Origin: a virus
Virus record (IMG/VR): IMGVR_UViG_3300045988_173726
Coordinates: 96,001 to 160,000 of that record
Direction: 5' to 3' (one strand)
Length of the DNA: 64,000 nucleotides
Each line of letters begins with the position of its first letter. Position 1 is the first letter of the stretch. This document shows, piece by piece, positions 1,335-22,057 of the stretch. The translations under genes and the position numbers were made by a program. The notes below the pieces were generated by a model. The model was given only the letters and a program-made list of their open reading frames with translations. It was not told the DNA's origin and searched no databases.

Positions 1335-1649
1335 ATGAGGGACGATATGGGAGAGCAGAATAGAAATCCGCTTGAGGGGTTACTTGAGGTACGGCGTGAG
1401 GTAAGAAAGCTTTGTCCAGAGCTTTTTCCGAAAGAGGAGCGAGTAGCCTACGGGGTAGTAGGCGAGACAGGAGAGCCTTCGGTGGCGCTTCAAAAGTTTA
1501 ATAAGCTATTGGCGGCACAGACGGGCAGTAAGACAGGAAAGAAGCGAAAGACAGCGGTAAAAGTCCCAGCAAAGCAAGGAAAGGTCGGAGACGGCGAATT
1601 TACGGGAACGAGTTTATTTGAGGCGATGAAACGAGGGGGAGTGCTATGA
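1335..1649 (+). CDS. Hypothetical Lys-rich small protein
   Basis: ORF with in-frame ATGs at 1335 and 1347 after GAGAGGGA. The stop overlaps the next start as ATGA at 1646. The track start at 1305 is a TTG inside a hairpin-rich leader, so the start is uncertain. Confidence 0.5.
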   Translation: MRDDMGEQNRNPLEGLLEVRREVRKLCPELFPKEERVAYGVVGETGEPSVALQKFNKLLAAQTGSKTGKKRKTAVKVPAKQGKVGDGEFTGTSLFEAMKRGGVL

Positions 1650-2065
1650 GTAAGCGCGTGTATGCGAAAGCCGAGACGGTACGAGTTCTAGATAGGTGGG
1701 ACGAAGAAGCGGAAGCTTCACTACAACTGCTTGCGTCCCCGAAGGCAATCGTAAGTCGTGTGAGGACAAATCCGAGAGGGTATTTCAAGCGTGTTAAGTA
1801 TGTTGTTCGACACGAAGGGAATGAATTAACTGAGGTTATAGTGAATTGTGAGGATTTTGATGCAGAGTCACCTTTCTTTGTCGGGACAGAGGAGATGATG
1901 TTTGTGTTTTCAACGCGGGGCAGTATACCTTGTACTTCTTTTACCGTCAAAATTAGCTTTGCAACAGGTTCTATCAAGATATTCGGAACTATAGAAGCGA
2001 TAGGATACTTGACAGACTGGCTTCATGTTCCATTTACAGATTTTAAGCTTGTGAGATACAGGTAA
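1646..2065 (+). CDS. Array paralogue A1 (SRVRTNP / DWLHVP small-protein family), function unknown
   Basis: ATG after GAGGGGGA. Shares VYAKA, SRVRTNP.G, YVVR, TGSI.IFG and L.DWLHVP..DFK with neighbouring ORFs. Confidence 0.8.
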   Translation: MSKRVYAKAETVRVLDRWDEEAEASLQLLASPKAIVSRVRTNPRGYFKRVKYVVRHEGNELTEVIVNCEDFDAESPFFVGTEEMMFVFSTRGSIPCTSFTVKISFATGSIKIFGTIEAIGYLTDWLHVPFTDFKLVRYR

Positions 2066-2083
2066 GAGAATGGGGGTTTTGTT

Positions 2084-2494
2084 GTGAAAGTATATGCGAA
2101 AGCAGTGAAATTGAGAGTACCAGACAGGTGTGACGGGGATATACATGTCACGCTTCAAATGGTTAAGCCTCTAAATGCGGTTTTAAGTAGAATAATGACA
2201 ACGCCGAACGGACGGTTAGTTCGTTCAGAGTATGTTGTTCGGAACGAGCAGGGAGTAACAACTCTTAGAGCAAATTTTGGTGAGTTTTGCGCAGAATCAC
2301 CTGTACCTGACGGCACAGAGCGGATAAGGCTTAGATTTTTAGTACGAGGTGGAGCAATACACACCTCAATTCGTGTCAATATCAATCTTTTGACTGGCTC
2401 TATAGATATATTTGGAAAGTATGGGACAGTCGCAGACTTGACTGACTGGCTTCATGTGTCGCCTAGCGATTTTAAGATTGTGAGAGCCAAGTAA
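2084..2494 (+). CDS. Array paralogue A2, function unknown
   Basis: GTG start after GGGGG. Motifs VYAKA, LSRIMTTPNG, YVVRNE, TGSIDIFG, LTDWLHVSPSDFK. Confidence 0.8.
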   Translation: MKVYAKAVKLRVPDRCDGDIHVTLQMVKPLNAVLSRIMTTPNGRLVRSEYVVRNEQGVTTLRANFGEFCAESPVPDGTERIRLRFLVRGGAIHTSIRVNINLLTGSIDIFGKYGTVADLTDWLHVSPSDFKIVRAK

Positions 2495-2516
2495 GAAAAG
2501 TTAGCGGGGGAGGTTT

Positions 2517-2933
2517 ATGAGTGGTCGAGTTTACGCGAGAGCAGGGAAGATGCGGGTCAGTCCGTTTCGAGATAGCGACAATGATACTGTACGGGCTACA
2601 CTTCAACGGGTAATATATCCGAGGTCATTTCTAAGTCGGTTAAGAACAAATCCGAAGGCGGAGTTTGTTAGCGCTGAATGCGTCATTCGTAATAGAGCAG
2701 AGAGTATACCGCTACGGTTTGAGGATTTGGTAGCTTTTCATTTCCCCATAGGAACGGTAGGTGTGACTTTAAGGTTTAAGCCGCGCTATAGTTTCGGAGA
2801 CAGTCTACTCTCTATTAAGACTAACCTTATCACAGACGATATAGAGGATATAGAGATAGTCGGGAAAAGAGAAGCGGTTGTAGACTTGTTAGAGTGGTTA
2901 CATGTGCCGCTGTCAGAGTTTCGATTGAAGTAG
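2517..2933 (+). CDS. Array paralogue A3, function unknown
   Basis: ATG after GGGGGAGG. Motifs VYARA, SRLRTNPKA, FPIGTVGVTLRF, IEIVGKREAVVDLLEWLHVPLSEF. Confidence 0.8.
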   Translation: MSGRVYARAGKMRVSPFRDSDNDTVRATLQRVIYPRSFLSRLRTNPKAEFVSAECVIRNRAESIPLRFEDLVAFHFPIGTVGVTLRFKPRYSFGDSLLSIKTNLITDDIEDIEIVGKREAVVDLLEWLHVPLSEFRLK

Positions 2934-2946
2934 TTTGGGGTGGTCT

Positions 2947-3402
2947 ATGAGTAAGAAGAGTAAGAAACAGTACGCGAGAGCTGAAGTAATAAGTCCATTT
3001 CTGGGGAGCGGTGGCGATGTGATAAAAGCTTGTCTTAGTATAGTTGTTTCTCCTATGGCATTTGTACGTCGGGTAATAGCGAATAAAATTGGTAAGCTAG
3101 CGGGTGTTGAGTACATTGCTTCTCGTGAAGCTGGCTATCTTCCGATACTGGCAGAAGATTTCCTAGCCAATGCGGATTTACCTAGTAACACGAAATGTGT
3201 AAGGCTTAAGTTCATGTTGCATAGTAGTTTATCCAGCAGTCTATCGGGTGGTATATTCTTAGTATTTGTTAGCTTCCGAGTTGGTCGTGTAGAAATACTC
3301 GGAAAGATGAATACAGTAGTAGCCCTAGTCGATTGGCTTAATGTTCCGTTTTCGGAATTTGAATTTATCCTTCCGAGTTCAGATTCATTGTGTTTAGGTT
3401 AG
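2947..3402 (+). CDS. Array paralogue A4, function unknown
   Basis: In-frame ATG at 2947 (the track start at 2935 is TTG). Motifs QYARAEV, VRRVIANK, VEILGKMNTVVALVDWLNVPFSEF. Confidence 0.75.
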   Translation: MSKKSKKQYARAEVISPFLGSGGDVIKACLSIVVSPMAFVRRVIANKIGKLAGVEYIASREAGYLPILAEDFLANADLPSNTKCVRLKFMLHSSLSSSLSGGIFLVFVSFRVGRVEILGKMNTVVALVDWLNVPFSEFEFILPSSDSLCLG

Positions 3403-3415
3403 GGGGTTTGTGGAT

Positions 3416-3838
3416 ATGAGTGGCAGGAAGTATTTGGATGTGGGCCATTTGAAGATAAGTAGTTCTGGTGGTATGCGAGGTCTATTGCATGTAACTTGCA
3501 AGACTAGCGCTTCTCTAAAGGCACTTGCGAGTAGAGTTTGCACGAATCCGCATAGTAGATTAACGGAAGCCTATTATTTAGTGGCGGGAAGTAGTGGGCG
3601 GCTTAATATCGAGGAGCTAAGTGTGTTGGACTTAAAAGCCTTTCGTTTACCCGAGGTGGCTGTTGGGCTTAGACTTGATTTTTCATCAAAAGGTAAGCTA
3701 GAAAGCAGGATAGGCGGCGAGGAGTTTTCAGTTTGGATTAACTCTGTGGAGAGTAAGCTGGAGATAATTGGCAAGAGAAACGCCGTTATAGAGTTGTGCG
3801 CGTGGCTTAATGCGCCGCTTTCAGATTTAATTAAGTAA
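3416..3838 (+). CDS. Array paralogue A5, function unknown
   Basis: ATG at 3416 lies 9 nt after AGGGGG (track start GTG at 3410). Motifs ASRVCTNPHS, LEIIGKRNAVIELCAWLNAPLSD. Confidence 0.75.
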   Translation: MSGRKYLDVGHLKISSSGGMRGLLHVTCKTSASLKALASRVCTNPHSRLTEAYYLVAGSSGRLNIEELSVLDLKAFRLPEVAVGLRLDFSSKGKLESRIGGEEFSVWINSVESKLEIIGKRNAVIELCAWLNAPLSDLIK

Positions 3839-3861
3839 TTCTGTGTTTAGGAGGTGAGATT

Positions 3862-4257
3862 GTGGGCGAGAGACGGTATCTGGACGATAGTTCCGTAAAG
3901 ATAGCGTGGGTTGGAGATAAATTAGACGCAAAGTTTAGAGTTGTCTCGTCATTAAAGGCGGTTGCGAGCCGTGTTAGGACAAACCCAAAAGGTAAGTTAG
4001 TGGAGGCTTCATGCGTAGTAGCTAGTGGCGGCAGTGTAAGATATGTTATGCTAAGGGTAGCGGATTTAGTTGCCTTCCGTTTACCTGTTGGGACTACTAG
4101 CGTTTTGCTTATTTTTGAGTCGAAAGGTAGTAGGCGCGGGGAAACATTTTCCATTATAATTGACTTAGCGGGGAAGTCGTTAGAGATAATTGGTAACAGA
4201 AACGAAGTAGTAGATTTGTGTTCGTGGCTTCATGAGCCGATTTGGGGGAATATATGA
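3862..4257 (+). CDS. Array paralogue A6, function unknown
   Basis: GTG 7 nt after AGGAGG. Motifs ASRVRTNPKG, FRLPVGTTSV, LEIIGNRNEVVDLCSWLHEP. Confidence 0.8.
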   Translation: MGERRYLDDSSVKIAWVGDKLDAKFRVVSSLKAVASRVRTNPKGKLVEASCVVASGGSVRYVMLRVADLVAFRLPVGTTSVLLIFESKGSRRGETFSIIIDLAGKSLEIIGNRNEVVDLCSWLHEPIWGNI

Positions 4258-4310
4258 CAGAACGAAGAAGCAGTGACAAGAGTTCCGTAAAGATAGCGCG
4301 GATAAATTAG
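4254..4310 (+). pseudogene. 18-codon remnant of a further array paralogue (MTERRSSDKSSVKIARIN*)
   Basis: ATGA-coupled to the A6 stop. The N-terminus matches A6 (MGERRYLDDSSVKIAW) and the gene at 6000 (MEKRRSSGKIKVKRD). It is truncated by a TAG just upstream of the TnpB-like copy 2. Confidence 0.45.
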
Positions 4311-4400
4311 CCGTTTCCAACGATGCAGAGAAGCGGGAATTACGTCTCAATTTTCTATGTTTTAGTTAAGGTTTTCATTAGGGGCATAGGGTGAATTGTA

Positions 4401-5732
4401 ATGCAGAAGCTAAAGTTGACTATAGTAACACAGCTACACGAGGGAAGTAACCGAGGTTTAATTGAATATATGGAAGCTTCCCGTAGGGATTATGGGAAAG
4501 CAATGCGAGAGACTTTCTATGCAATTAAGCGTGGTGGTTTTGATAAGTCAAAGTACAACACATGCCTTCAACATAGACATGGAATTGTTAGTCGAACTGC
4601 AAATGCTATCATTTCTGACGCTCAAGGAAGATTTTATGCTCTTAAGGCGCTGAAAGAGTGTGAGAGGAAGCAGTTAGAGCGAAAGATTAAATATCTTGAG
4701 AGTACAGTTATTCCTAAGTTAGTTGAGCAAAGGAATCAGAATTCAACTAAGCTTCAAGACGGAGTATTTGTTTCGTTGATTCAACAAAGGAATCTAAGGT
4801 TAAGGGTAGTTTCAAAGAAGTCTAAACTAAATAGGTTGAAGCAGAAGCTTGAAGTGTTGAAGTATCAACTAGAAATAGGAAAGTTAAAGCTTTGTTTTGG
4901 AACGAAAAGGTTGTTAAAGCAAGACCAAGAGAAGTTTATTGAGCAAAGGGATAGTCAGATGACTTTCATAGGAGCTAAGGGGGAGCTAGCATGTAATCAC
5001 AACTTGCAGTTGCGCTACAATCGAAGAAGTAATCAGTTTTTGGTTCGATTGCGTAAAGATTTCGGAGGGTATAAGTTAGTTAAAGGCGAAGATAGGTATG
5101 TTTACGGCAAAGTTTATTTCAATCATCACAAGGGACAGCTTGTTTCGATTCTGAGGTCTAAAACTAGTCCTTTATCTTATAGGATAGTCAAAAGGAAAGG
5201 TAGGTATTATTTACACTGTATATTTGAGTTTCAAGTAGGGAACAGCGGTATAGTTACTCGTTCTTCTTACGGAACGGTAGGATTAGACTTTAACAAAGGG
5301 TTTGTGACCTTATCAGAGACGAATCAGTACGGACATTTAGTTAAAACAGAGTTTATGCCTTATTGTTTCGAGTCTGGAAGTAAAACAAAAACAGACTTAC
5401 AGGATGTAGCTAATCATGTAGTTAAACTAGCTTTACGAACAGGTAAGGATATTTGTATAGAGAATCTTGATTTTAGAAGAACAAAAGCAAAGACAGAAAC
5501 AAAGATAGGAAAGAAATACAATGCTATGCTTCATTCTTTAGCCTATCGAGAGTTCAGTGACGCGATGGGGAGTGTATGTTATAGGAACAGTGTTGGATTG
5601 CACAAAGTAAATCCAGCGTGGACATCATGGTTTGCAGAGAGGATTTATTGTAAACCTATGAAGTTGAACATACATACTGGGGCTTCGTATGTAATAGCAA
5701 GGCGTGGGCAAGGGTATAAGGATGCTATATAA
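4401..5732 (+). CDS. TnpB-like RuvC-fold protein, copy 2 (full length, 443 aa); no zinc finger, RuvC-III Asp replaced by His
   Basis: GLDFNKG, CIENLDFRR, NPAWTSW. Only about 15 aa, with no CxxC pairs, lie between NPAWTSW and NIHTGASYVIARRG. The genuine TnpB in this window (24489..25676) serves as an internal comparator. Confidence 0.75.
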   Translation: MQKLKLTIVTQLHEGSNRGLIEYMEASRRDYGKAMRETFYAIKRGGFDKSKYNTCLQHRHGIVSRTANAIISDAQGRFYALKALKECERKQLERKIKYLESTVIPKLVEQRNQNSTKLQDGVFVSLIQQRNLRLRVVSKKSKLNRLKQKLEVLKYQLEIGKLKLCFGTKRLLKQDQEKFIEQRDSQMTFIGAKGELACNHNLQLRYNRRSNQFLVRLRKDFGGYKLVKGEDRYVYGKVYFNHHKGQLVSILRSKTSPLSYRIVKRKGRYYLHCIFEFQVGNSGIVTRSSYGTVGLDFNKGFVTLSETNQYGHLVKTEFMPYCFESGSKTKTDLQDVANHVVKLALRTGKDICIENLDFRRTKAKTETKIGKKYNAMLHSLAYREFSDAMGSVCYRNSVGLHKVNPAWTSWFAERIYCKPMKLNIHTGASYVIARRGQGYKDAI

Positions 5733-5965
5733 ATAGCATTTAACAATCAGTCCTACACAGATGTATCAACGCAAGACAGTTGAGCATTTCCCTGTAGGAC
5801 AAAGTTTAATTAGAAGCTCTGGCAATAATTCTCATTGTGTGGCTCTACGGTCGAAATGGGATGAGTTAGGGTGGAATAGGTTAACCGTAAGACCTTGAGT
5901 TGAAAAACTCTAAAATTGAGCTGGGAATATTGATTTATTAAATTTCGTATTTTCTAGTTACGGTT
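5733..5965 (+). ncRNA. Conserved structured non-coding module 3' of TnpB-like copy 2 (omega-RNA-like scaffold candidate)
   Basis: Aligns to 951..1176. Stems 5750-5755/5795-5800 (extended by 5758-5760/5792-5794 across a 2-nt bulge) and 5883-5890/5958-5965. Similarity to copy 1 ends at 5965. Confidence 0.45.
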
Positions 5966-5999
5966 CATGGCTTTATGTGCCGATTTGGAGGAGTGTGTG

Positions 6000-6671
6000 A
6001 TGGAAAAAAGAAGAAGCAGTGGAAAGATTAAAGTTAAAAGGGACGCTAATGGTCGTTTAGTTCAGACTTTTGACGCCCAAGTTAAAGTTAAGAGGGACGC
6101 TAATGGTGATTTAGTGCAGATTGGCGGCGATAAAGAAACCGTGCGGGTTAAGGCATCTAGTAGGCACGGTATAGGCACTAGGAATTTGGCAGGGGCAGGT
6201 TTGGGTGTTCATCATCTTGTTAAGGACGCGAGCGGTCGTTTAATTGTGTGTGATAATATTGGTAGTGTTCTTAGGGGTAATCTTGGGGGTAAAAAGATAC
6301 ATTCTATAGATATAGACGGTCGGGTTCAGTTATGGAGAGGTAACGGAGTTTGTAGTGTATCATTTGGGATACTGATGGAGCCAAGAGAGTTTTTGGAGGG
6401 ATTGGTACAGTATCCGAATTGCACGAGAGCTGAAGTAGCTCTGATGTATCCGAGTTTTAAGTCTACAAAGTTTACTGCTAATTATAGCTTAGATAAGCTG
6501 ATTAGAAATGGGCTTTCAGAGGACACTCGTGGTATGATTCTTTATTTTAGTCGCAATAGGGAAGTAAACTATAACCTTACAGCGATGGTAAGCTTTATGG
6601 ATAGGATACTGACGCTTACAGGGGATAATGATTATGTGGCGGCGTTGGTTCATTGGCTTAGTGCGAGGTGA
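6000..6671 (+). CDS. Array paralogue B1 (longer, 223 aa), function unknown
   Basis: ATG at 6000 lies 6 nt after GGAGGAG (5987-5993); the track start at 5967 falls in the leader. There is an internal 54-nt tandem repeat (KVKRDANG.LVQ twice, 6030-6119). The C-terminus, LTLTGDNDYVAALVHWLSAR, matches the family. Confidence 0.75.
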   Translation: MEKRRSSGKIKVKRDANGRLVQTFDAQVKVKRDANGDLVQIGGDKETVRVKASSRHGIGTRNLAGAGLGVHHLVKDASGRLIVCDNIGSVLRGNLGGKKIHSIDIDGRVQLWRGNGVCSVSFGILMEPREFLEGLVQYPNCTRAEVALMYPSFKSTKFTANYSLDKLIRNGLSEDTRGMILYFSRNREVNYNLTAMVSFMDRILTLTGDNDYVAALVHWLSAR

Positions 6672-7024
6672 CTTGTGTGAATAGACCGATGGTAAAGCTC
6701 TTACATGTCGAGCAGAATCACGGCGGGGTTGATTGGAGTAGGGTGCTTCACTATAAGATTCTGATAAACACATTAACCTTCGCGAAGATTCTTGTAAAGA
6801 AGAATTTAGATGAAATAGAGTTTATACAGTGTGTGGAGTATGTAAAAGACGAGTGTAGCGGAGCTTGGAAGAGTGAGTGGAGTCGTATTAAGCCAGACGA
6901 GTTCTTAAAGCTTAAGTATCGGCGTAAAGAACGCAAGGAGTATATTATCAACTTCACGAGCTGTAATGTGGCGGTAATTCGTTGTTGGCGGCGGGAAGCG
7001 GATATTGTAGAGGTTAGTTTATAG
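6668..7024 (+). CDS. Small protein within the array (B2), weak family resemblance, function unknown
   Basis: The ORF fills the gap between B1 and B3. The GTG at 6668 overlaps the B1 stop, with an alternative ATG at 6689. No clear RBS. Confidence 0.55.
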   Translation: MTCVNRPMVKLLHVEQNHGGVDWSRVLHYKILINTLTFAKILVKKNLDEIEFIQCVEYVKDECSGAWKSEWSRIKPDEFLKLKYRRKERKEYIINFTSCNVAVIRCWRREADIVEVSL

Positions 7025-7042
7025 CGTTTATAGGGGGAGTTT

Positions 7043-7372
7043 ATGCGGAAAGCGCGAATTAAGCAAGTTGAAGTAGGGAAGTGGAAGCTAACGGAGTCGG
7101 TAGAGAGTTTTCTTCGCTTTGCGCTTAGGGAAAGCAACTTTAGTAACGCATTATTCAAGGTTACTGTAGGAGATGGGGAGCAGTGGAAACAGGTTTCGGT
7201 AGTCGAGGCAGTTAGCTTTGCGAAGCAGACGCTACGGTTTATCTGTATTGAGTATGGCGACCCGTCTACGATGCGAAGTTGTAGTATGTGTATAGACGCA
7301 GGGAGCAGGCTTTTAACGCTTTTTGGTGACGAGGAGCTTATCGGATTTGTTCTTTCCGAGTGCGGGGTGTGA
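7043..7372 (+). CDS. Array paralogue B3, function unknown
   Basis: ATG after GGGGGAG. The C-terminus, RLLTLFGDEELIGFVLSECG, resembles the family's terminal motif. Confidence 0.7.
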   Translation: MRKARIKQVEVGKWKLTESVESFLRFALRESNFSNALFKVTVGDGEQWKQVSVVEAVSFAKQTLRFICIEYGDPSTMRSCSMCIDAGSRLLTLFGDEELIGFVLSECGV

Positions 7373-7803
7373 GAGTGGCGAAAAGAAAGCGTCTTGAAGT
7401 TATTAAGCGTTATATTAGTCCAGACCTGTGTTATGCAGAGGTAACTTGTGAGCTAGGCTGTAAGCCTTCTGCAATTTGTAGCTGGGCGCTTAAGACCTCT
7501 GGGGTTGCAGAGTATGTGGAAATAATGGCAGAGCATAAATTAGGCTTGTGGGGGCGAGTAACACAGTCGGTTCTTGAGCGTGATGTTTTAATAGGGGGCA
7601 GAGAGTTCATGTTCTCTTTTGGTACGAGACCTGATGACACTTTTCTTACCCTTTTTCTTGACTGTAGGTATAGGCAAGTGCGTATTTGTGGAATACCGGA
7701 GTTGATTTTCTCGTTTATAAAGGCATTTAATGGCGCGATAGTGATAAAAAGCCTTTTATATGAGTATGCAAAGGCTGTCTTACAGCACGAAGAGGTGGAA
7801 TGA
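7360..7803 (+). CDS. Array paralogue B4, function unknown
   Basis: GTG at 7360 or in-frame GTG at 7375 after GCGGGGTG. Motif VRICGIPELIFSFIKAFNG. Confidence 0.65.
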   Translation: MRGVRVAKRKRLEVIKRYISPDLCYAEVTCELGCKPSAICSWALKTSGVAEYVEIMAEHKLGLWGRVTQSVLERDVLIGGREFMFSFGTRPDDTFLTLFLDCRYRQVRICGIPELIFSFIKAFNGAIVIKSLLYEYAKAVLQHEEVE

Positions 7804-8189
7804 TGAATGGCAGAGTTTTAATTAGCGAAGAGCCGCTAGAGGTGACGCCTATTAGTTGGGATACCCGCGCTATCTTTCGTACTGTGGCTACACCGAGGAA
7901 GATATTAGAGAGGATTCTAAGCATGCCGCAGAGCGATAGTTATAGTGCAAACTTGATTTTGGCAGACGGTTCATTGAATCCGATAAGCGAAGCGGCTCTT
8001 AGGTCTTTGAAGTTTCCGAGAGGCACAGTTGGAGTAGAGTTTTCCCATTCTTATGTGATTAGTGGTGGTTGGGTGACAATTTGGATAGCGATTAAATTTC
8101 GTGAAAAGACGCTTACTTTGCAGGGTGATGCGTGTGGTGTGAGTTCGGCAGTAACTTGGCTTTTAACAACAGAAGAGACGCGGGAGTAG
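7800..8189 (+). CDS. Array paralogue B5, function unknown
   Basis: ATGATG after GAGGTGG. TPRKILERILSMPQS resembles SRVRTNP, FPRGTVGVEF resembles the A3 motif FPIGTVGV, and TLTLQGDACGVSSAVTWLL matches the family C-terminus. Confidence 0.8.
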   Translation: MMNGRVLISEEPLEVTPISWDTRAIFRTVATPRKILERILSMPQSDSYSANLILADGSLNPISEAALRSLKFPRGTVGVEFSHSYVISGGWVTIWIAIKFREKTLTLQGDACGVSSAVTWLLTTEETRE

Positions 8190-8192
8190 CCT

Positions 8193-8627
8193 ATGTATCA
8201 AGTATATACTTACACGTTGAGCGAGCTATACAGTTTGTTTGACAATGGCAGGATTAAGTTGAAAGCGCCTAGTGATAGGACGCTCTCGAATGAGCATGTG
8301 CGGCTCTTGCTTGACGGGATATTTTGCGGTTATCCGATAGCGCCGCTTGTGATAATTAGAGGAGCTACAGAGCTAGGAGAGCCAGTTATTAAGGTTTTGC
8401 ATGGCACGTTTGTTTTGTCTGTTCTGCTCGGATACCGTAAGGGAGCAATACGGAGCAAAGGTTATTTGAGTTTTAAGAGCGTATCTGATAGGTCAAAGCA
8501 CGGAGACAGCGATGATTTTATAAAGCTTATGAACTATGATGTACCTGTTATAGCGCTTAGTGATGCGAAGAGTGGAGAAGCAGAGGCAACGCTACGGTTG
8601 ATTAGAGCAATGGGAAAGCACGAGTGA
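8193..8627 (+). CDS. Mini DUF262/ParB-like N-domain protein C1 (degenerate DGQQR position)
   Basis: LSELYSLFDNGRIKL, LLLDGIFCGYPIAPLVIIRG, VLHGTFVLSVLLGY, DVPVIALSD...LRLIRAMG. The order of motifs matches the DUF262 N-terminal core, but the QR/DGQQR residues are replaced. Confidence 0.5.
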   Translation: MYQVYTYTLSELYSLFDNGRIKLKAPSDRTLSNEHVRLLLDGIFCGYPIAPLVIIRGATELGEPVIKVLHGTFVLSVLLGYRKGAIRSKGYLSFKSVSDRSKHGDSDDFIKLMNYDVPVIALSDAKSGEAEATLRLIRAMGKHE

Positions 8628-8635
8628 GGTAGAAT

Positions 8636-9229
8636 ATGGGAGCGGTCATTAAGAAAGAATTTTGGACGGTAGAGCAGATTTTTCGCTTTGTGGATGAGAG
8701 ATTGGATAAGAACGCCTTTTACACTTTGAGAACAGAGGAAGGTGCAAGTAAGGGCGCAGTGATAGATGATATAACTACGCTAGCGCAGAGTCTTGAGGAG
8801 TTTCCAAACGATGTGTTAAACTGTGTATTTAATAATTATCCACTTCCGAATATCGTACTTTGCCGTGCTAGGTTATTTCCTGACGAGAGATTTAGAGAGG
8901 GTATAGGCGAAGATGTTTGGGCGCTTTGTTCTGGTGAATTAATACTTGGTACACTTTATGCCTACCGTGAAGGTTTAGCTAATTGGCGTGCGGTTGAAGA
9001 GGATGCCGAGATTGATTATGATGACGCCGATGATGCTAATTTTGACTGGTGGAATGGTGAAAGTTATCAGACGCTTGTACAAAAGGCTTCCATGGGGGAT
9101 AGAGAGGCGAAGGAGAGGTTGGAAGCCTTTAATAACTGTGAGATTCCGTTTATTCGTATAATGGAGATTGATGACAAGGAATACATTTGGGAAATTGACG
9201 AAGTGCTTGAGTATTGCTCCGACTACTAA
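8636..9229 (+). CDS. Mini DUF262/ParB-like paralogue C2 (with acidic insert)
   Basis: WTVEQIFRFVDE, NNYPLPNIVLCRA, CSGELILGTLYAY, CEIPFIRIMEID. Confidence 0.5.
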   Translation: MGAVIKKEFWTVEQIFRFVDERLDKNAFYTLRTEEGASKGAVIDDITTLAQSLEEFPNDVLNCVFNNYPLPNIVLCRARLFPDERFREGIGEDVWALCSGELILGTLYAYREGLANWRAVEEDAEIDYDDADDANFDWWNGESYQTLVQKASMGDREAKERLEAFNNCEIPFIRIMEIDDKEYIWEIDEVLEYCSDY

Positions 9230-9239
9230 GAGGCAGTAT

Positions 9240-9635
9240 ATGCAGACAAGCGGGACGGTAACGGTCAAGTGGCTTTACGATAAGTATGACAAACTAGTTA
9301 CGGCGGGAGCATTAAAGCCGTTAAGGTTCGGGGCGATTGTTTACGAGAACGAAGGTCACTATAAAGACATTTTGTCGGCTATCGTGCAGGGCTTGCCTAT
9401 TCCGCAGATAGTGGTAGGGCGAGTGAGAGCGGGGGAGACAGAGCGTTATAGCATAGTTTCTGGCGTGTTTATTCTATGTAGTTTGCTTAATTTTCGTGCC
9501 GAGAGCGGTGGTATGAGCGCAGAGCGAGTATTACAGATTTTAAGCTATTCTGTAAATCTAACGATGCTTGATACGATGACACCCCAGCGTTTAACAGAGG
9601 TAAGTAAGCTTCTAGGCGAGGTTCTGATATGGTAA
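9240..9635 (+). CDS. Mini DUF262/ParB-like paralogue C3
   Basis: In-frame ATG at 9240 lies 6 nt after AAGAGG; the track start at 9168 overlaps C2. Motifs QGLPIPQIVVGRV, VSGVFILCSLLNF. Confidence 0.5.
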   Translation: MQTSGTVTVKWLYDKYDKLVTAGALKPLRFGAIVYENEGHYKDILSAIVQGLPIPQIVVGRVRAGETERYSIVSGVFILCSLLNFRAESGGMSAERVLQILSYSVNLTMLDTMTPQRLTEVSKLLGEVLIW

Positions 9636-9997
9636 ACTACGAAGTAATGGGGATGTCGGTTAGGGACTTGTATCGAAGGTTAAAAAACGGGCAGATTATT
9701 TTAGAGTCAAAATACTTTGTGAAAGCTACGACAAGTAGCGAGGAGTTATTGCTTCGTGGAGTGCTTTCTGGCGTCCCGTTTCCTGCTATCGTGCTAATGC
9801 GAGAGAGCAAGGGCTATAGCGTAATTCTCGGCAGGGAGCTGTTGAGTGTGCTTATATCATTGCTTGATAGTAACGTTTATGAGGAGCTTGACGATATTGA
9901 CAAGTTTATGCTTATGCGTCACTGCTTTTATGTAAATATTGTGGAAGGTCGTGACAGCATAGATATTGTTGTAGAGGTTTTCGAGAGCTTTCGTTAG
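9629..9997 (+). CDS. Mini DUF262/ParB-like paralogue C4
   Basis: VRDLYRRLKNGQIIL, SGVPFPAIVLMRE, ILGRELLSVLISL. Confidence 0.5.
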   Translation: MVNYEVMGMSVRDLYRRLKNGQIILESKYFVKATTSSEELLLRGVLSGVPFPAIVLMRESKGYSVILGRELLSVLISLLDSNVYEELDDIDKFMLMRHCFYVNIVEGRDSIDIVVEVFESFR

Positions 9998-10010
9998 GAG
10001 GACTTGTTGC

Positions 10011-10379
10011 ATGAAGCACTTTAACTGTTACAACATCGACTTAACTATTTTTGATATACATGATAAGTGTTCCAGTGGAGATTTGTTGTACAAGTGTGGC
10101 AGTGATATTAAAGAGAGTGACATTGAGCTGTTAAATACCTGCCTTGAGTCTGGCTATCCGCTTCCAACACTGGTAGTTTACATAGGGAAAGACGCGCCAG
10201 CAAGGGTTCTGGTGGGTAATAGACTTGTTGCAACGATTAGCGCGTTTGTGACTATGGGAAAGTACAAAAGTTCAGTGCGAGAGAGGTTGTTTAAGAGCAT
10301 TCATTGTATCATAATAGATTCAGCTAGTCTCAGTGACGCGAATAACATTCGGCGTTTATTTAAGAGGTTTTCAGCATGA
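10011..10379 (+). CDS. Mini DUF262/ParB-like paralogue C5
   Basis: ATG after AGGAGG. Motifs ESGYPLPTLVVYIG, LVGNRLVATISAF. Confidence 0.5.
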   Translation: MKHFNCYNIDLTIFDIHDKCSSGDLLYKCGSDIKESDIELLNTCLESGYPLPTLVVYIGKDAPARVLVGNRLVATISAFVTMGKYKSSVRERLFKSIHCIIIDSASLSDANNIRRLFKRFSA

Positions 10380-10771
10380 GCAAGAAGTATAGGGAGATTA
10401 AGATTAAACCAGAGGAGTTAGGGCACTTGGCAGATAATTTCAAGTTATCTGTCGTGAATATTGGCAATCGGGTAGCTACTAAGCTAGACATTAGCAGAGT
10501 GAAGTCGCTTGCGGCGCATGGATTTCCGTTTCCTACGCTTGTTTTAGCAGAGTATTTAGTGGACGGGAATAGAAAGTATCGTGTTGTTTATGGCGCTGGG
10601 CTTGTATCGGCTATTTTGTCCTACATAGCTAACGCTTCGGAGAAGGAAAAGGATACGCAAGCGTTTAAGGAGTTTATGCGGTACGAGTTTACGGCTTTTG
10701 TGGTGGGCAGTGATAACAAGGAGAACGATTACTTGTTTGATGCATTTAAGGGAATAAACAGAAAGGGTTAA
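10376..10771 (+). CDS. Mini DUF262/ParB-like paralogue C6
   Basis: ATGA coupling. Motifs AHGFPFPTLVLAEY, VYGAGLVSAILSY. Confidence 0.5.
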   Translation: MSKKYREIKIKPEELGHLADNFKLSVVNIGNRVATKLDISRVKSLAAHGFPFPTLVLAEYLVDGNRKYRVVYGAGLVSAILSYIANASEKEKDTQAFKEFMRYEFTAFVVGSDNKENDYLFDAFKGINRKG

Positions 10772-12361
10772 ATGGAGATAAAAGAGCTACTTAATGGGGT
10801 AATAGACGAGAGAGAGCTTGATTATCGGGTGTTAATCGGGGAAGAGGGGGCTTCAAAGCCCCCGTTAATCCCGTTTTTTAATTTAATGCCTGCATTAAAC
10901 TTAATGCATCGGCATTTGGTTCGTGGCGGGAGTGTGTTAATTCACGCAGATGTTGATATGGACGGGTTAGGCGCAGCGAAAGTTGTAAGAGAGGAGCTTA
11001 ATGCGATTGGGTTTAAGGATATAAAGACCTGTATCAACAGTAAGCGGGAGCATGGGATGAATCCGCAGATAGTGTCTCATGTGAATAGCAAGAAGCCGAG
11101 TTTATTTATAGTCGTAGACAGTAGTAGTAACGACTTAGAGTATATAAAGGCTTTGGAGTGCGATGTAATGGTCTTAGACCATCATATAGTAGAGCATAGC
11201 GAGTATTCTGGAAAGACAGCTGGCGGGGAGTATCTAATCATAAACTGTATGATAGATAACAAGGCAGATGGTTATGAAGCAGACGAGGATATGTCGGGAG
11301 CATTGGTAGCTTACGAGTTTTTCCGTCAGTATGAGGACAGAGTAGACAGGCATTATCTTGAGGGTCTTAAGTTGTATCAGTGGGTCGGGGTAACTTTGAT
11401 TTCCGACATCATACGGACGGGGAATGCAAGGAACCAGTGGTATATCGAAAGGACGATAAATCAGACAGAGCTTAGAGACGAGTTGCGGGTTTTAATGCGG
11501 GTGTTGAATCCGAACGAGAAGAGGCTAACGCGGTCGTTTATCGCCTATAAGCTAGTCCCTGCGGTAAATAAGGCGATACGGGCGGGGGCTACAGCGGTAG
11601 CACTGTATGTAATCATGGCACATCCAGAGGAAGCATATAAGCTAGAGGTTTACGGGAAGTATCAGCCGAAGGTAAACGACATTCCGAAGCGGGTTGTGCG
11701 GATAGAGAACGGAATCGGGATAGTCGATTTAGGTGAGCTTAATTTAGCGGTGAATGTGCTTGGGTTAGCGGTAAACTATACGGGCTTGGTAGCGGCTATG
11801 GTAATGAGAAAGCATAACTGTAGTGCGATAGCATATGTGCGTGATACGGATAGCGAGGGGAACACGATTTTCCGTGGGTCATTTCGCGGGAGAGCGCACG
11901 GATTGCCCTATAAGGAGATAGCCACGAAGTATAGTATTATGGCGCAGGGGCATACGAACGCCTTTGGTATAAGGGTAAAGCCTAGTGAGTTAAGCCGTTT
12001 AACGGGGGCGCTAGGTATTAGTGAGAGTGCCTATCGGTATAAGCCGTATTGCACGATGTATCCGATACGGGATGACTTGCGGGGGCGACATTTTAAGGAT
12101 TTAGGGGAGCTAAGAGAGGGGAAGAAACTTTTGTATCTCGGGATAGCGAATAGTCGGTTGTCGTCCGATGAGCAGATAAATGTGACGATGGAGAGTAAGA
12201 ATCTAGTGCTTACGGAGGAGCATACGAACTACTACAAGTACGAGATAGACGGCTACGAGGTAACAGCCTTTGAGCGCGTGAAAACGGAATTTGTAGACAT
12301 ATATTTTGAGTATGGTGAGTATCTTCGTGGCTATGTGCGAGCTAGACACGACAGCATTTAG
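10772..12361 (+). CDS. RecJ-like DHH-family phosphoesterase / single-strand DNA exonuclease
   Basis: DHH motifs in order: HADVDMDG, VVDSSSND, VLDHH. DHHA1-like AQGHTNAFG near the C-terminal half. Confidence 0.7.
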   Translation: MEIKELLNGVIDERELDYRVLIGEEGASKPPLIPFFNLMPALNLMHRHLVRGGSVLIHADVDMDGLGAAKVVREELNAIGFKDIKTCINSKREHGMNPQIVSHVNSKKPSLFIVVDSSSNDLEYIKALECDVMVLDHHIVEHSEYSGKTAGGEYLIINCMIDNKADGYEADEDMSGALVAYEFFRQYEDRVDRHYLEGLKLYQWVGVTLISDIIRTGNARNQWYIERTINQTELRDELRVLMRVLNPNEKRLTRSFIAYKLVPAVNKAIRAGATAVALYVIMAHPEEAYKLEVYGKYQPKVNDIPKRVVRIENGIGIVDLGELNLAVNVLGLAVNYTGLVAAMVMRKHNCSAIAYVRDTDSEGNTIFRGSFRGRAHGLPYKEIATKYSIMAQGHTNAFGIRVKPSELSRLTGALGISESAYRYKPYCTMYPIRDDLRGRHFKDLGELREGKKLLYLGIANSRLSSDEQINVTMESKNLVLTEEHTNYYKYEIDGYEVTAFERVKTEFVDIYFEYGEYLRGYVRARHDSI

Positions 12362-12370
12362 ACCTCACTT

Positions 12371-12429
12371 AATACCGCCTTTGTATCTTGGGCATAACTT
12401 AAAGTCTCAAGAGAAAGGCGGTATTTTGC
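12371..12429 (+). terminator. Long hairpin after the RecJ-like gene
   Basis: AATACCGCCTTT ... AAAGGCGGTATT with an inner TCTTG/CAAGA stem, followed by TTTTG. Confidence 0.5.
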
Positions 12430-12430
12430 T

Positions 12431-13261
12431 GTGAAGATTGGAAATAAAGTCGTTCACAAGACATCATTGAATGAGGGAAAGAGCCTTGTGCCTGTAATTG
12501 CGGTAGGTGCGGGTATCGTAGGCGCAGTGGTTTATGTGTCGCTTGTCGGTAGGAATGCGAGTAAGAGCGTACAGGTTGCGCAGTTAAAGAGTAGCGTTTA
12601 TAAGAATCAGCCGATTACGCTGGATATGCTACAGCCGTATGATATGTTGCAGGCAGAGTATGACAAGCAGATAATGTCCACGGCGAATAGTGACGGCACG
12701 GTGGAGAAGCGTTTAGTTGCTTGGAAAGATGTGCAGGGCTATTTGTCGCAGGGTGCGTTTGCGGCGTATCAGCTTCCGAAGGAGAGTTTTCTCGATTTAA
12801 GGACGCTTATGACGAGCAGAGTGGACAATAGCGACAGTGTTCTTTACAGTTTCCCGGGAAAAGAGGTTGTACAGCTTGAAGTAAACGGTGCAGACTTAAA
12901 TGCGTTCAAGACTTTCATACAACCTGGAGATAAAGTAAACATTGATGCTATATACTCCGAGGATATGCAGAGTGGTAACGACAGAGTTAAGATATATCGT
13001 TCCGAGCCAGTGTTTACGGGCATTATGATAGCGGATATTATCAACAGTTCGGGTGCTTCGGTATTAGACATGTATGCAGAGTATAACGCAATGTCCGAGG
13101 TAGATAAGGCGGCATTGGATAACGATGCGACATGGCAGGAGCAGACAGAGCCGAGTTCGCTGTTAGTCGCCTTAACGCCAGATGAGAAGGACAGCTATTA
13201 TAAGTTCTTAAATCGCGACAATGTGAAGTTTAAGGTGTCGTTGCCGCAGAGAGCGGACTAA
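12431..13261 (+). CDS. CpaB/RcpC-like pilus assembly protein (N-terminal TM anchor)
   Basis: N-terminal TM segment LVPVIAVGAGIVGAVVYVSLVG, then a SAF-like segment (VQVAQLKSSVYKNQPITLDML). Sits at the head of the Tad-type operon. GTG start with a weak RBS. Confidence 0.5.
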   Translation: MKIGNKVVHKTSLNEGKSLVPVIAVGAGIVGAVVYVSLVGRNASKSVQVAQLKSSVYKNQPITLDMLQPYDMLQAEYDKQIMSTANSDGTVEKRLVAWKDVQGYLSQGAFAAYQLPKESFLDLRTLMTSRVDNSDSVLYSFPGKEVVQLEVNGADLNAFKTFIQPGDKVNIDAIYSEDMQSGNDRVKIYRSEPVFTGIMIADIINSSGASVLDMYAEYNAMSEVDKAALDNDATWQEQTEPSSLLVALTPDEKDSYYKFLNRDNVKFKVSLPQRAD

Positions 13262-13273
13262 GGGGGTAGGTTC

Positions 13274-14197
13274 ATGGCAGATATGCAGGATATACTTAAC
13301 TCTTCGGATATGGCTGACGGAAACGACTTACGGAGTAAGACAGATAAGGCGGTAGGTCGCTTAATCAGTCGTTTTTCTGGGGCAGATGAGAGTAGGAAGA
13401 TAGTAAAGCGGGTGTTAAACAATGTCATCGTGTTTATGGGAGCAAGCGGTGGCGCGGGAGCAAGCACGCTGGTCGCGACAGAAGCGGTTGCGATGAAGGA
13501 GAAGGGTCTTACGGTAGCGGTAGTTGACCTTGGAATCATGTTTCCGAGTCAGCATATCTATTTTGACTTAGACCAGTCTATCGGAAAAGCAGATTTAGTT
13601 TCGTATCTTTCGGGTAATAACGGGTTAAATGTGTCGCTTGAGTATAGCGATGTGCTGTTTAACAACGAGGCTACGGGGGTGGCAACGCTAACTGCTTGTA
13701 ACAGGACGCTTCGGGACTATGTGGTTATTGACAGTTCAAATGACGCGGTGCAAGCTTTAACGGAGGCATTAAACAGGCTTTCGAGTTTATTTGATGTAGT
13801 TCTAATCGACTGTAAGCTTGATTTAAGCTCTATGCTTGTGCAGACGACTCTGTTTAGGGCAGATAACATCTACTTGGTTATGGACGATGGGGTGCAGTCG
13901 CTCATAAATGTCAGTAAGCTCCGCGCAAACCTAGACGATTCGGGTATAAACACGAATAAGGTGCGTTATATCATGAACAAGCGTAAGAGTTTCTATTACG
14001 CAGAAAACAACTTAAAAGCGCTCGGTATAGAGTTAATCGGTATTTTGCCGTTTGAGATGGGTGTAGTCGAGTGCGGTTTAAGGGGACAGCTATTTACGGT
14101 ATCGGGAAAGAATACTAGCAAGACTTCCCCGAAGTATTTAGAGGCGGTAGACAGTCTAACGGCATCAATCCTTGAGATAGGAGGATATACAGAGTGA
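13274..14197 (+). CDS. TadZ/CpaE-like ParA/MinD-fold protein with a P-loop lacking the Lys
   Basis: VIVFMGASGGAGASTLVA...LTVAVVDLG. The later D-rich strand FDVVLIDC fits the MinD/ParA fold. Lies immediately upstream of the TadA-type ATPase. Confidence 0.65.
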   Translation: MADMQDILNSSDMADGNDLRSKTDKAVGRLISRFSGADESRKIVKRVLNNVIVFMGASGGAGASTLVATEAVAMKEKGLTVAVVDLGIMFPSQHIYFDLDQSIGKADLVSYLSGNNGLNVSLEYSDVLFNNEATGVATLTACNRTLRDYVVIDSSNDAVQALTEALNRLSSLFDVVLIDCKLDLSSMLVQTTLFRADNIYLVMDDGVQSLINVSKLRANLDDSGINTNKVRYIMNKRKSFYYAENNLKALGIELIGILPFEMGVVECGLRGQLFTVSGKNTSKTSPKYLEAVDSLTASILEIGGYTE

Positions 14198-15744
14198 ATC
14201 CAGAGCAGTATTTGCATATGCAGTCAAAGCGTGGTGCAAAGCAGACCACGACAGACAAGACAGCGCGTCCGTTTGAGAGTGTATTAACGGAGTGCAGAGG
14301 GTATATCGACAAGAATGCCGATTCGCTGGAGAGTAAGTCGGGTACAGAAAAGACAAAGAAGATAGGCGAGTTGATTTTGTCGTATCTGATGCAGGCGAAG
14401 CCGTTGGTCGAGGGGTTTATAAACGCGGACGGCACTTCCGACACACAGGGGTTAACCCAGCGTTTAACGCAGGAAATCACGGATTACGGTATTTTAACGG
14501 ATGCGTTAGAGAACGATGACATTTTCGAGATACGAGATAACGGTCGAGAGATAAAGGTCGAGATAAAGGGACATGTAGAGGACTATCGCGACCCAAAGAC
14601 AGGTCATATCGTAAGGTTTGACTCGCCAGAACAGCAGAAAACGGTCATTGCGAAGTTGCTCGGCGATGTGAGACTTACGCCAAAGGACGCAGTGGTTAAT
14701 GCGAGAACGGTGCAGGGCTATCGTGTAGCGGCATTGCATAGTTCGGCGCAGTCGAAAGACCCGATAGACCCGTCAAACGACCAGTATGCTTCGTTTGTTC
14801 TCCGTAAGTTTAAGCGGAATCGAATGAATCTTGGCGACATAGTAAAGAGCGGTACGCTAAGTGACAACATGGCGCGTTTACTTGCACTTAGTATGTCGGG
14901 AAGTTTAACTTTCTTCACCGTTGGACCAACATCTTCTGGTAAGACGACAACGAACCAAGCGATTTTGCAGGCAACGCCGCCTAAGCAGAGAGTTGTGTTG
15001 CTACAGAATCCGTCCGAGATAGACCTTCGTATGCGAGATTCAACGGGTCGTATCATAAACGATGTGTTGCACTTAGAGGCAAAGGACGACATACAGAATC
15101 CGCTCCCGACTTCTCCGACTATGGAGAACTTGATGAAGCACATTTTGCGACTTTCTCCGACATTTGTGTGTTTCGGTGAGCTTCGAGATAATGTAGAGTT
15201 TCAGCGTGGCATCAGTATCGGTTTAGCGGGTCATCCGTTTAACTGCACCTATCACGCCGAGGATTCGGCGGGTGCAATCGACCGATTCTTAAAGGCGTAT
15301 ATAGCGGCTTCTGGAGAGGGTATAGACACTTCGATGAGTACACTAACGAGGCTTTTGAATTTGATTATTGTGCAGAAGATACTGCCAGACGGCACGCGAA
15401 AGATTTTACAGATTTCGGAGGTAATCGGCACAGACCCGAACGATTCAAGCAAGCCGATAATCAACGATATTTACAGGTATGTGATTGACGAAGAGCCAGA
15501 CCTTGACGATGAGGGAAATGTTCTTCGGATTAACGGTAAGCATAAGCGGGTCGGTTGTTTATCGGAGAAGATAGTGCATAAGTTAAAAATCGAGGGTGTT
15601 GCGACAACGCGGTTTGATTTTCTGTTAAAGCCGCCGACAGCGGACGAGGTAGAGACTTATGAGGGCAACTACGAGACGATTATCCATTACGGCTTGGATA
15701 AGCTAAGAGAGCAGAAGCGCATGAATGCGTTAAAGAAGGACTAA
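14194..15744 (+). CDS. tadA: TadA/CpaF-type secretion ATPase (VirB11/PilT superfamily)
   Basis: Walker A GPTSSGKTTT, Asp-box-like LLQNPSEID, Walker B-like VCFGELRD, His-box GHPFNCTYHA. GTG start after AGGAGG. Confidence 0.85.
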   Translation: MNPEQYLHMQSKRGAKQTTTDKTARPFESVLTECRGYIDKNADSLESKSGTEKTKKIGELILSYLMQAKPLVEGFINADGTSDTQGLTQRLTQEITDYGILTDALENDDIFEIRDNGREIKVEIKGHVEDYRDPKTGHIVRFDSPEQQKTVIAKLLGDVRLTPKDAVVNARTVQGYRVAALHSSAQSKDPIDPSNDQYASFVLRKFKRNRMNLGDIVKSGTLSDNMARLLALSMSGSLTFFTVGPTSSGKTTTNQAILQATPPKQRVVLLQNPSEIDLRMRDSTGRIINDVLHLEAKDDIQNPLPTSPTMENLMKHILRLSPTFVCFGELRDNVEFQRGISIGLAGHPFNCTYHAEDSAGAIDRFLKAYIAASGEGIDTSMSTLTRLLNLIIVQKILPDGTRKILQISEVIGTDPNDSSKPIINDIYRYVIDEEPDLDDEGNVLRINGKHKRVGCLSEKIVHKLKIEGVATTRFDFLLKPPTADEVETYEGNYETIIHYGLDKLREQKRMNALKKD

Positions 15745-15756
15745 GGGGGTGATGGA

Positions 15757-16749: not shown

Positions 16750-16751
16750 GT

Positions 16752-22040: not shown

Positions 22041-22057
22041 GAGCTAGGGAGGTTGGT

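Follow-up and report, generated by a model that had tools for sequence, protein, structure and literature searches.

The stretch of DNA analysed here (64,000 nucleotides, positions 96,001 to 160,000 of the IMG/VR virus record IMGVR_UViG_3300045988_173726, hereafter called the window) carries at 8193-10771 a tandem array of six small genes, m1 to m6, whose products form one divergent paralog family. Sequence profiles and a structure model place these proteins in the ParB-DUF262 (GmrSD_N-like) homology group, as a family restricted to one clade, and their motifs suggest that they are probably inactive copies of the DUF262 domain. Comparison with related genomes has revealed that the array is the hypervariable part of a variable accessory island, with the signature of an arms race; this hypervariability is a new finding beyond the original prediction, an earlier reading of the same DNA. 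We tentatively propose a role of m1-m6 as anti-defence mimics, a putative function to which we give somewhat less than an even chance and which is weighed below against other readings.

A tandem family of DUF262-like domains

The six genes lie on the + strand as m1 (8193..8627, 144 amino acids), m2 (8636..9229, 197 amino acids, enlarged by an N-terminal and a long acidic insertion), m3 (9240..9635, 131 amino acids from the ATG at 9240), m4 (9629..9997, 122 amino acids, the minimal member), m5 (10011..10379, 122 amino acids) and m6 (10376..10771, 131 amino acids), just where six consecutive open reading frames (ORFs) had been described originally. Neighbouring genes are spaced by -7 (overlap) to +13 nucleotides (gap), and a Shine-Dalgarno-like site of the GAGG/GGAG/AGGAGG type is found 6-12 nucleotides 5' of each ATG. 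The gene of a RecJ-like DHH exonuclease (10772..12361, + strand; phrog_2484, 4e-43; PF01368 (DHH), 3e-10) begins directly past the m6 stop codon, and these matches, together with the ORFs, confirm the earlier description of the copies as stand-alone, tandem and adjacent to a RecJ-like gene. For m3, the mechanical ORF from the TTG at 9168 has 155 amino acids and overlaps m2; m3 orthologs have 131 amino acids in public gene calls, the caller used for contig L002 having chosen the longer start, and the m3 protein is identical (100%) to P0199. A scan for promoters and terminators gave no enrichment above shuffles. The m2 protein is acidic (pI 4.2, net charge -25; its orthologs, -10 to -30), and the other members are near-neutral or mildly basic (m1, m5 and m6 mildly basic). 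The acidic insertion of m2 (EEDAEIDYDDADDANFDWWNGE...) recalls the charge of DNA-mimic anti-restriction proteins.

Pairwise identity among m1-m6 is 17-28%, and pairwise BLAST links reach E = 1e-4 to 1e-5 in a database of the 63 ORFs of the window. When an ortholog profile of any single member was used, the other five were found within its best seven to nine matches, almost always ahead of unrelated ORFs (best links, E = 1e-8), and a six-frame scan of the 64 kb with the family profile retrieved exactly m1-m6 and zero further members. The paralogy of m1-m6 is therefore real and beyond chance. In the family alignment, which is composed of 36 sequences (m1-m6 and non-redundant orthologs), a P, a V and a G are invariant. 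Because no DNA-level repeats were found inside 8193-10771, the duplications that formed the array are old.

The DUF262 domain has three clustered motifs, QRxxxW (motif I), DGxQR (motif II, the nucleotide-binding centre) and FxxxN (motif III) (PMC12065111). A Pfam scan of m1-m6 gave no match to PF03235 for any member even at E <= 10, so that all lie below the gathering threshold of that family, and the Pfam column of the precomputed annotation is empty for all clade homologs listed. A sub-threshold match of m2 to HTH_16 was obtained, and no nuclease match in Pfam was present among the six. The PHROGs scan gave nothing significant, the PDB sequence profile search one chance match only (E = 0.67), and the PADLOC scan a single weak match, that of m4 to NsnA (E = 0.0044).

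Profile searches tell more of the ancestry. The family profile, compared with 1.84 billion (1.84e9) representative proteins, found 390 proteins at E <= 1e-3. The distant matches, outside the clade, have E = 1e-9 to 1e-5, span the whole profile and are usually N-terminal in proteins mostly of 200-640 amino acids (median 355), and PF03235 GmrSD_N was present in nine of the nine long matches tested. Both G and R stand at the DGxQR columns in 122 of the 138 distant match stretches, nearly all as D-G-x-Q-R, and of these 122 stretches, whose motif II is intact, 65 have Q-R at the aligned columns of motif I. With a stricter D/E-G-x-x-R filter, 121 proteins were obtained and scanned with Pfam and PADLOC; PF03235 was found in all 121, and in their MAFFT alignment the Q, R and W of motif I are at least 90% conserved. 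A reverse profile, made from the DUF262 domains of these 121 relatives and searched against the 63 ORFs of the window, placed m1-m6 as the top six (m1, 1.8e-12; m4, 1.4e-10; m6, 5.5e-10; m3, 1.3e-8; m2, 6.7e-6; m5, 1.3e-3), followed by the next ORF at E = 0.49. The homology to an N-terminal DUF262 core, as claimed in the original prediction, is thus upheld by the agreement of forward and reverse profiles and by PF03235 in every filtered relative. Of the profile checks proposed with that claim, the direct PF03235 scan gave nothing, whereas profile-profile comparison by hhalign gave a probability of 99.3%, which is supportive and not independent, the target set being drawn from the profile's own matches.

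The fold was examined with m4, the sole member modelled, for which AlphaFold2 gave a model with pLDDT 89.7 and pTM 0.81. In the Foldseek search of PDB, the top 27 matches are all of the ParB/sulfiredoxin (Srx) fold (Noc, ParB, sulfiredoxin, PadC, BrxU and KorB) at E ~1e-2 and TM-scores (TM) of 0.35-0.48 (0.42-0.48 to ParB structures), with the BrxU structure 7p9k among them. In BFVD, a database of predicted viral structures, the best matches are GmrSD_N/DUF262 proteins (E 6e-8 to 1e-5, TM 0.65-0.83), and ParB-type proteins rank below them (TM ~0.45-0.5). Both the ParB/Srx fold, which had also been predicted, and a specific affinity to DUF262 are supported by the model and the profiles.

These fold matches bear on the reading of m1-m6 as partition or CTP-switch proteins of ParB type, which would serve the ParA-like gene starting at 13274 or the ParM-like gene at 20883. 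ParB, Noc and KorB appear among the PDB matches, and the ParA/MinD-like gene and the actin-like partition gene lie 2.5 kb and 10 kb downstream. However, the similarity to ParB in BFVD is lower than that to GmrSD_N proteins, neither a helix-turn-helix (HTH) or other DNA-binding domain nor an arginine patch of the GERRxRA type is found, and hypervariability would be unexpected beside a ParA partner that is 99-100% identical among relatives. A ParB partition protein was rejected for the missing HTH and arginine patch and for the variability beside an invariant ParA, and we regard this reading as extremely improbable. An identity with sulfiredoxin was also rejected, since no catalytic Cys motif is present. 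The N-domains of the CTPases ParB, Noc and KorB and sulfiredoxin therefore have the same fold as m4, but are structurally less similar to it than GmrSD_N is, and the array has no counterpart of the GGCHR-type cysteine motif.

The fold core of the domain is kept, that is, the strand-loop G-[YFLV]-P-x-P-x-[IL]-V, the glycine with which the motif II helix begins and the hydrophobic strand and helix that come next. Motif I is gone in all six, with m1 retaining its R alone (S-D-R-T-L), and motif II is reduced to G in all six, reading H-G-T-F-V in m1, S-G-E-L-I in m2, S-G-V-F-I in m3, L-G-R-E-L in m4, V-G-N-R-L in m5 and Y-G-A-G-L in m6; the R beside this G in m4 and m5 is unconserved in their orthologs. 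Motif III is lost from m1-m5 and kept in m6 as F-K-G-I-N and in most m6 orthologs as F-K-G-x-N, and m1-m6 lack the D-S found in the L-I-D-S helix. The strings HGTFVLS, SGELILG, SGVFILC, LGRELLS, VGNRLVA and YGAGLVS pointed out earlier were all found, in a single aligned column block. The earlier statement that DGQQR and the upstream QR are missing thus stands for motif II, of which only the G is kept, and has to be amended in that m1 keeps the arginine of motif I and m6 keeps motif III. In BrxU, hydrolysis and defence are both lost when DGQQR carries the change Q101A or R102A, and the switch between dimer and monomer is controlled by S42, which lies in RLFDS (PMC8565348). From the motif states and the Q101A/R102A data (PMC8565348), loss of nucleoside triphosphate (NTP) binding and hydrolysis is predicted by analogy for m1-m6.

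The C-terminal parts of known DUF262 proteins are absent as well. The DNA-binding domain ParBDB is present in NsnA, GmrSD, SspE and DndB (PMC12065111), and the proteins m1-m6 end with the DUF262 core and have neither ParBDB nor a nuclease domain. In m4, no such part is possible because the domain core takes up its whole 122 amino acids.

The 121 active relatives specify the nearest active branch. All 121 score in PADLOC as NsnA (best 3e-88) and as PD-T4-2_A (best 2.4e-62); 14 have a Schlafen/AlbA_2 domain, about 14 an HNH domain and none a DUF1524 domain. Judged from these profile matches, it is the NsnA (Menshen) / PD-T4-2_A type and not the GmrSD/BrxU type to which the closest active proteins belong, and here the earlier choice of GmrSD, BrxU, SspE and DndB as counterparts has to be replaced. 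NsnA/PD-T4-2_A-type proteins are like m1-m6 in fold and, at profile level, over the whole ~125-amino-acid domain, with common blocks L-I-D-S-I-l-x-G-Y-P-x-P-x-I-x-L, the motif II glycine and F-x-x-Y-x-i-p-v; the array differs by having no motifs I and II and no ParBDB, and motif III only in m6. GmrSD, BrxU and SspE have an N-terminal domain of the same superfamily, but carry a C-terminal DUF1524 His-Me (HNH) nuclease and the NTPase motifs I and II that m1-m6 do not have. We class the array family as an offshoot of the ParB-DUF262 group, divergent and motif-less, that lies outside the NsnA, GmrSD/BrxU/SspE and ParB families, because the motif comparison and the Pfam threshold both leave it out and the defining domains of these families are absent.

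In Menshen, ParBDB follows ParB-DUF262, and genes for the ABC-ATPase NsnB and the effector NsnC lie downstream (PMC12065111), whereas m1-m6 have no NsnB/NsnC-like neighbours, being flanked by their paralogs and the RecJ-like gene, and occur in tandem on a mobile element in 5-8 copies or fragments per genome, truncated or split ones included. This comparison bears on another reading, that m1-m6 are sensor or specificity modules of an exclusion or defence system that the element encodes against competing phages and plasmids, in concert with further genes of the island, for instance those of family U, another variable tandem family, which adjoins the array. It would agree with the nature of DUF262 as a defence-associated sensor domain, with the NsnA/PD-T4-2_A type of all active relatives, with the existence of prophage-borne canonical DUF262 genes (L014/L015) and with the fact that defence genes also sit in variable islands of mobile elements. 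We nevertheless hold it to be quite unlikely, considering that the NTPase motifs required by BrxU for defence are gone (PMC8565348), that no nuclease, ATPase or other effector is found in or beside the array, and that PADLOC systems give only the one weak NsnA match.

The best-scoring active DUF262 relative, P0247 (L014:6001-6552, L015:4849-5400), has an intact DGRQR and is cut by the contig end; its region is temperate-phage-like immunity (HTH, M78 peptidase, RecT/YqaJ) and fits a prophage-borne defence gene. Other stand-alone, motif-degenerate DUF262-like proteins of 107-188 amino acids without DGxQR exist in metagenomes (P0261, P0273, P0275, P0286 and others), on mobile-element-like or short contigs, and are not close to m1-m6; when tandem arrays were looked for around such proteins, single copies only were found. 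Four proteins of this kind without DGxQR and with 137-188 amino acids (L011:6001-6489, L012:244-810, L013:1620-2033 and L004:904-1377) sit singly on unrelated metagenomic contigs, one of these being 84 kb long and bearing integrases. DUF262 cores without the motifs may thus form a wider, unannotated class. A two-domain fusion, P0376, was set aside; its gene call in the NCBI assembly spans more DNA than the 332-amino-acid product, which is consistent with introns.

The hypervariable island

Homologs of m1-m6 were found only on metagenomic contigs of ~240-272 kb, mostly from human-gut assemblies. The loci L001, L002 and L005-L010 were compared with the window, and since L002 is essentially identical to it, the following ranges come from the other seven. 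The ratio of nonsynonymous (dN) to synonymous (dS) change, omega, was calculated by the NG86 method; the dS of m2, m5 and m6 is near saturation and their omega is rough. Six genes downstream of the RecJ-like gene have amino acid identities of 97-100% to the window (omega 0.00-0.03) and the RecJ-like gene 95-97% (omega 0.05-0.08), with dS of 0.2-0.47 and dN of at most 0.027 for RecJ and the downstream genes. The corresponding values are 77-89% (omega 0.16-0.35) for m1, 54-67% (0.19-0.36) for m2, 86-91% (0.08-0.14) for m3, 71-92% (0.13-0.35) for m4, 30-45% (0.37-0.62) for m5, the most divergent member with dN of 0.45-0.62, and 48-68% (0.22-0.42) for m6. Over m1-m6, dN is 0.04-0.62 at dS of 0.3-1.4, so that their amino acid change (dN) is roughly 2-600 times that of RecJ and the downstream genes, and omega is below 1 in every comparison. 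Because omega is below 1, the six genes encode real, constrained proteins, which are under net purifying selection and change far faster than their neighbours.

When alleles were classified at 90% identity in nine genomes (the window, L001, L005-L010 and L016), 3-7 classes per gene were obtained for m1-m6 versus a single class for RecJ and likewise for the gene after it. For m5, five classes were found, eight of the nine genomes having a full-length copy, and for m6, seven classes in eight genomes. The combinations of alleles are non-congruent across the nine genomes, a sign that the array has recombined internally. All related genomes carry the array, some of them lacking certain members or having them in truncated form: in L001, m3 was seen only as an N-terminally truncated ORF of 87 amino acids, and most relatives have two m2-like genes versus one in the window. 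On the right, the variable island is bounded by the conserved RecJ-like gene, and family U, of which relatives have 3-12 copies, forms the left part of the island.

The variable positions of m4 cluster at 28-39 (the place of motif I), 58-62, 69-75 (where the motif II helix begins) and 107-116 and, when placed on the secondary structure, fall where a nucleotide pocket would lie. In m6, no variation is seen in the motif II helix, YRVVYGAGLVSAILS, while the first 40 residues are highly variable.

The selection data speak to the possibility that m1-m6 have no function and are duplicates, now in decay, of a DUF262 gene that was once active. Loss of the catalytic motifs, truncated or split copies in some relatives and an omega above that of the neighbours would be in accord with decay, but omega stays at 0.08-0.62, below 1 in every pairwise comparison at the dS given above. 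The reading frames are intact with Shine-Dalgarno-like sites, the AlphaFold2 model is confident, hundreds of intact full-length variants are present in public metagenomes (public data give dozens to ~100 sequence clusters for each paralog), and each paralog is maintained as a recognisable ortholog group. The pseudogene reading was rejected on omega, and decay appears very improbable.

The contrast between the array and the RecJ-like gene likewise concerns a reading in which m1-m6 are non-catalytic DNA- or nucleotide-binding accessories of the DNA metabolism of the element, for example adaptor or specificity subunits of RecJ or DNA-coating proteins. The array abuts the upstream side of the RecJ-like gene in all relatives, the ParB/Srx fold handles DNA and nucleotides, m1, m5 and m6 are mildly basic, and m6 retains an invariant motif II helix and motif III. 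Adjacency to RecJ is by itself weak evidence, however, because all genes of the element are on one strand. No co-variation with RecJ is seen, since RecJ is near-invariant (95-97%, one class) and m1-m6 are hypervariable (30-92%, 3-7 classes); members are lost or truncated in some genomes in which RecJ is intact, and ParBDB, which carries DNA binding in SspE/NsnA-type proteins (PMC12065111), is absent. We consider such an accessory function unlikely, while giving it some weight.

A possible role as mimics of host sensors

The reading that we prefer, although its chance falls a little short of even, is that m1-m6 are putative anti-defence proteins, i.e. non-catalytic mimics of the DUF262 sensor modules of the host. 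In GmrSD/BrxU and SspE the sensor is DUF262, which is also the predicted sensor of Menshen (PMC12065111, PMC10952713). The domain is found in Dazbog and PD-T4-2 as well. BrxU needs Q101 and R102 of DGQQR and passes through a dimer-monomer cycle under nucleotide control (PMC8565348), GmrS1 and GmrSD2 form a pair obliged to act together (PMC12373910), and phage T4 encodes several variant-specific GmrSD inhibitors in one hotspot (PMC12373910). The mimic reading is drawn by analogy from this sensor role, the BrxU cycle, the GmrS1/GmrSD2 pairing and the T4 inhibitor hotspot.

A dead sensor copy might form a complex with the sensor of the host and so halt the nucleotide-driven cycle of dimer and monomer; it might equally bind up the ATPase or effector partner for which the sensor is the normal docking site, or cover the DNA feature that the sensor reads. 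The divergent paralogs might each cover a different host variant, in the manner of T4 Ip1-3 against GmrSD variants. As targets, NsnA of Menshen and PD-T4-2_A, which belong to the nearest active branch, would come into question, and Dazbog and GmrSD/BrxU/SspE-type enzymes would also be possible. A wider version of this proposal, which is rather doubtful at present, would make the array the first case of "sensor-domain mimicry", in which dead, diversifying copies poison variants of Menshen, PD-T4-2, Dazbog or GmrSD by forming dead hetero-complexes, and alleles are exchanged between phage genomes in tracking the host repertoire. The hypervariability of the array is consistent with the decoy idea and is no proof of it.

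The closest functional analogy to mimics of this kind is given by the small phage inhibitors Ip1, Ip2 and Ip3 of T4 and TifA of an enterococcal phage. TifA binds and inhibits GmrSD-type enzymes (PMC11322646), and Ip1-3 are encoded together in a variable hotspot, each being specific to one variant of a defence family (PMC12373910, PMC11322646). Ip1-3 are mutually non-homologous except for a packaging leader (PMC12373910), whereas m1-m6 are paralogs with no common N-terminal leader visible.

Several points weigh against a function as sensor mimics. Neither of the papers on Ip1-3 and TifA describes the inhibitor as DUF262-like (PMC12373910, PMC11322646), and by this description they are set apart from m1-m6; our literature search, in an incomplete library, found no DUF262-fold inhibitor, no phage array of inactive DUF262 copies and no protein inhibitor for Menshen, Dazbog or PD-T4-2, the described ones (Ip1-3 and TifA) targeting the GmrSD type only. 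In BrxU, it is mostly the linkers and C-terminal parts that keep the dimer together (PMC8565348), and an N-domain on its own may be unable to dock. A type IV threat is not established, because DNA-modification genes were sought in the window and none was seen. Fast evolution and allele shuffling would fit any gene of host interaction or of conflict between phages. Finally, when 185,579 species genomes were searched for a host by means of the TnpB and T2SSE ATPase proteins of the window, both scans came back empty, and DUF262-based systems in the host are thus presumed. The viral nature of the element also enters here: several homolog contigs are IMG/VR viral and one protein is named "MAG TPA: hypothetical protein [Caudoviricetes sp.]", but the virus label rests on these IMG/VR identifiers and that one NCBI name, and no capsid or terminase gene was found within the 64-kb window.

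The carrying element and meaning of the array

Every long ORF of the window is on the + strand, with a GC skew of +0.17 to +0.38 over 1-64000, and no tRNA genes were found in the window. A DNA polymerase A, a clamp-loader-like ATPase, a 5'-3' exonuclease and an endolysin-like protein with choline-binding repeats are encoded; choline-binding or cell-wall-binding repeats and an endolysin-like segment were located at 33630-34394 and 51282-54239. Two features point to a Gram-positive host, namely the cell-wall-binding repeats and the cultured phages with RecJ-like homologs, every one of which is a phage of Firmicutes. A blastn search with 8000-13000 against phage and plasmid collections and a tblastn search with m1 against cultured phages gave no match.

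Upstream of the array, family U consists of 10 copies of ~110-155 amino acids and a 234-amino-acid member at 1646-4257 and 5967-8189 (span 1646..8189, + strand). It is unrelated to m1-m6, has no match in Pfam or PHROGs, and its AlphaFold2 model (pLDDT 86.7) is beta-rich with no fold match in PDB. Some of its members are variable (69-86% identity), and the member at 7360-7803 is conserved (92-99%). This region also has a segmental duplication, 1-1183 versus 4783-5972, with a period of ~4.78 kb and 78-95% nucleotide identity. The proteins of the ORFs at 99-950 and 4401-5732 are 82% identical, the longer one having a weak match to a transposase PHROG, and an intergenic stretch of 43 nucleotides (985-1027 / 5766-5808) is 95% identical, above the coding parts, and may be regulatory.

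Downstream of the RecJ-like gene, a module at 12431-17846 encodes a 276-amino-acid protein with an N-terminal hydrophobic segment, the ParA/MinD-like ATPase (13274-14197), a T2SSE-type ATPase (14194-15744) and two match-less ORFs; it recalls the assembly core of Tad/type IV filaments, and in relatives it is conserved at 98-100% amino acid identity with omega of ~0.01. At 20883-24259, an actin-like partition protein of the ParM/ALP type (phrog_691, 7e-34) is followed by a 733-amino-acid ORF that has only sub-threshold Pfam and PHROG matches of coiled-coil type; this pair suggests plasmid-like maintenance or intracellular positioning of DNA. A TnpB gene (IS605 OrfB / Cas12f-like TNB domain) at 24489-25676 coincides with a local dip in GC content (0.39 versus ~0.47) and has no close relative in the 185,579 species genomes.

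The array is one of the fastest-changing loci of a widespread gut element of ~260 kb. Apart from any functional claim, a sizeable, clade-specific family that is invisible to Pfam and PHROGs belongs to DUF262, a domain whose signalling is only partly understood. If m1-m6 are dead mimics, they would be ready-made probes of the protein contacts of the DUF262 sensor and would represent a new way of countering defence, by use of a defence system's own domain against it. More such genes could then be found by a signature in sequence and structure, a DUF262 core that stands alone in a variable island and has lost its motifs.

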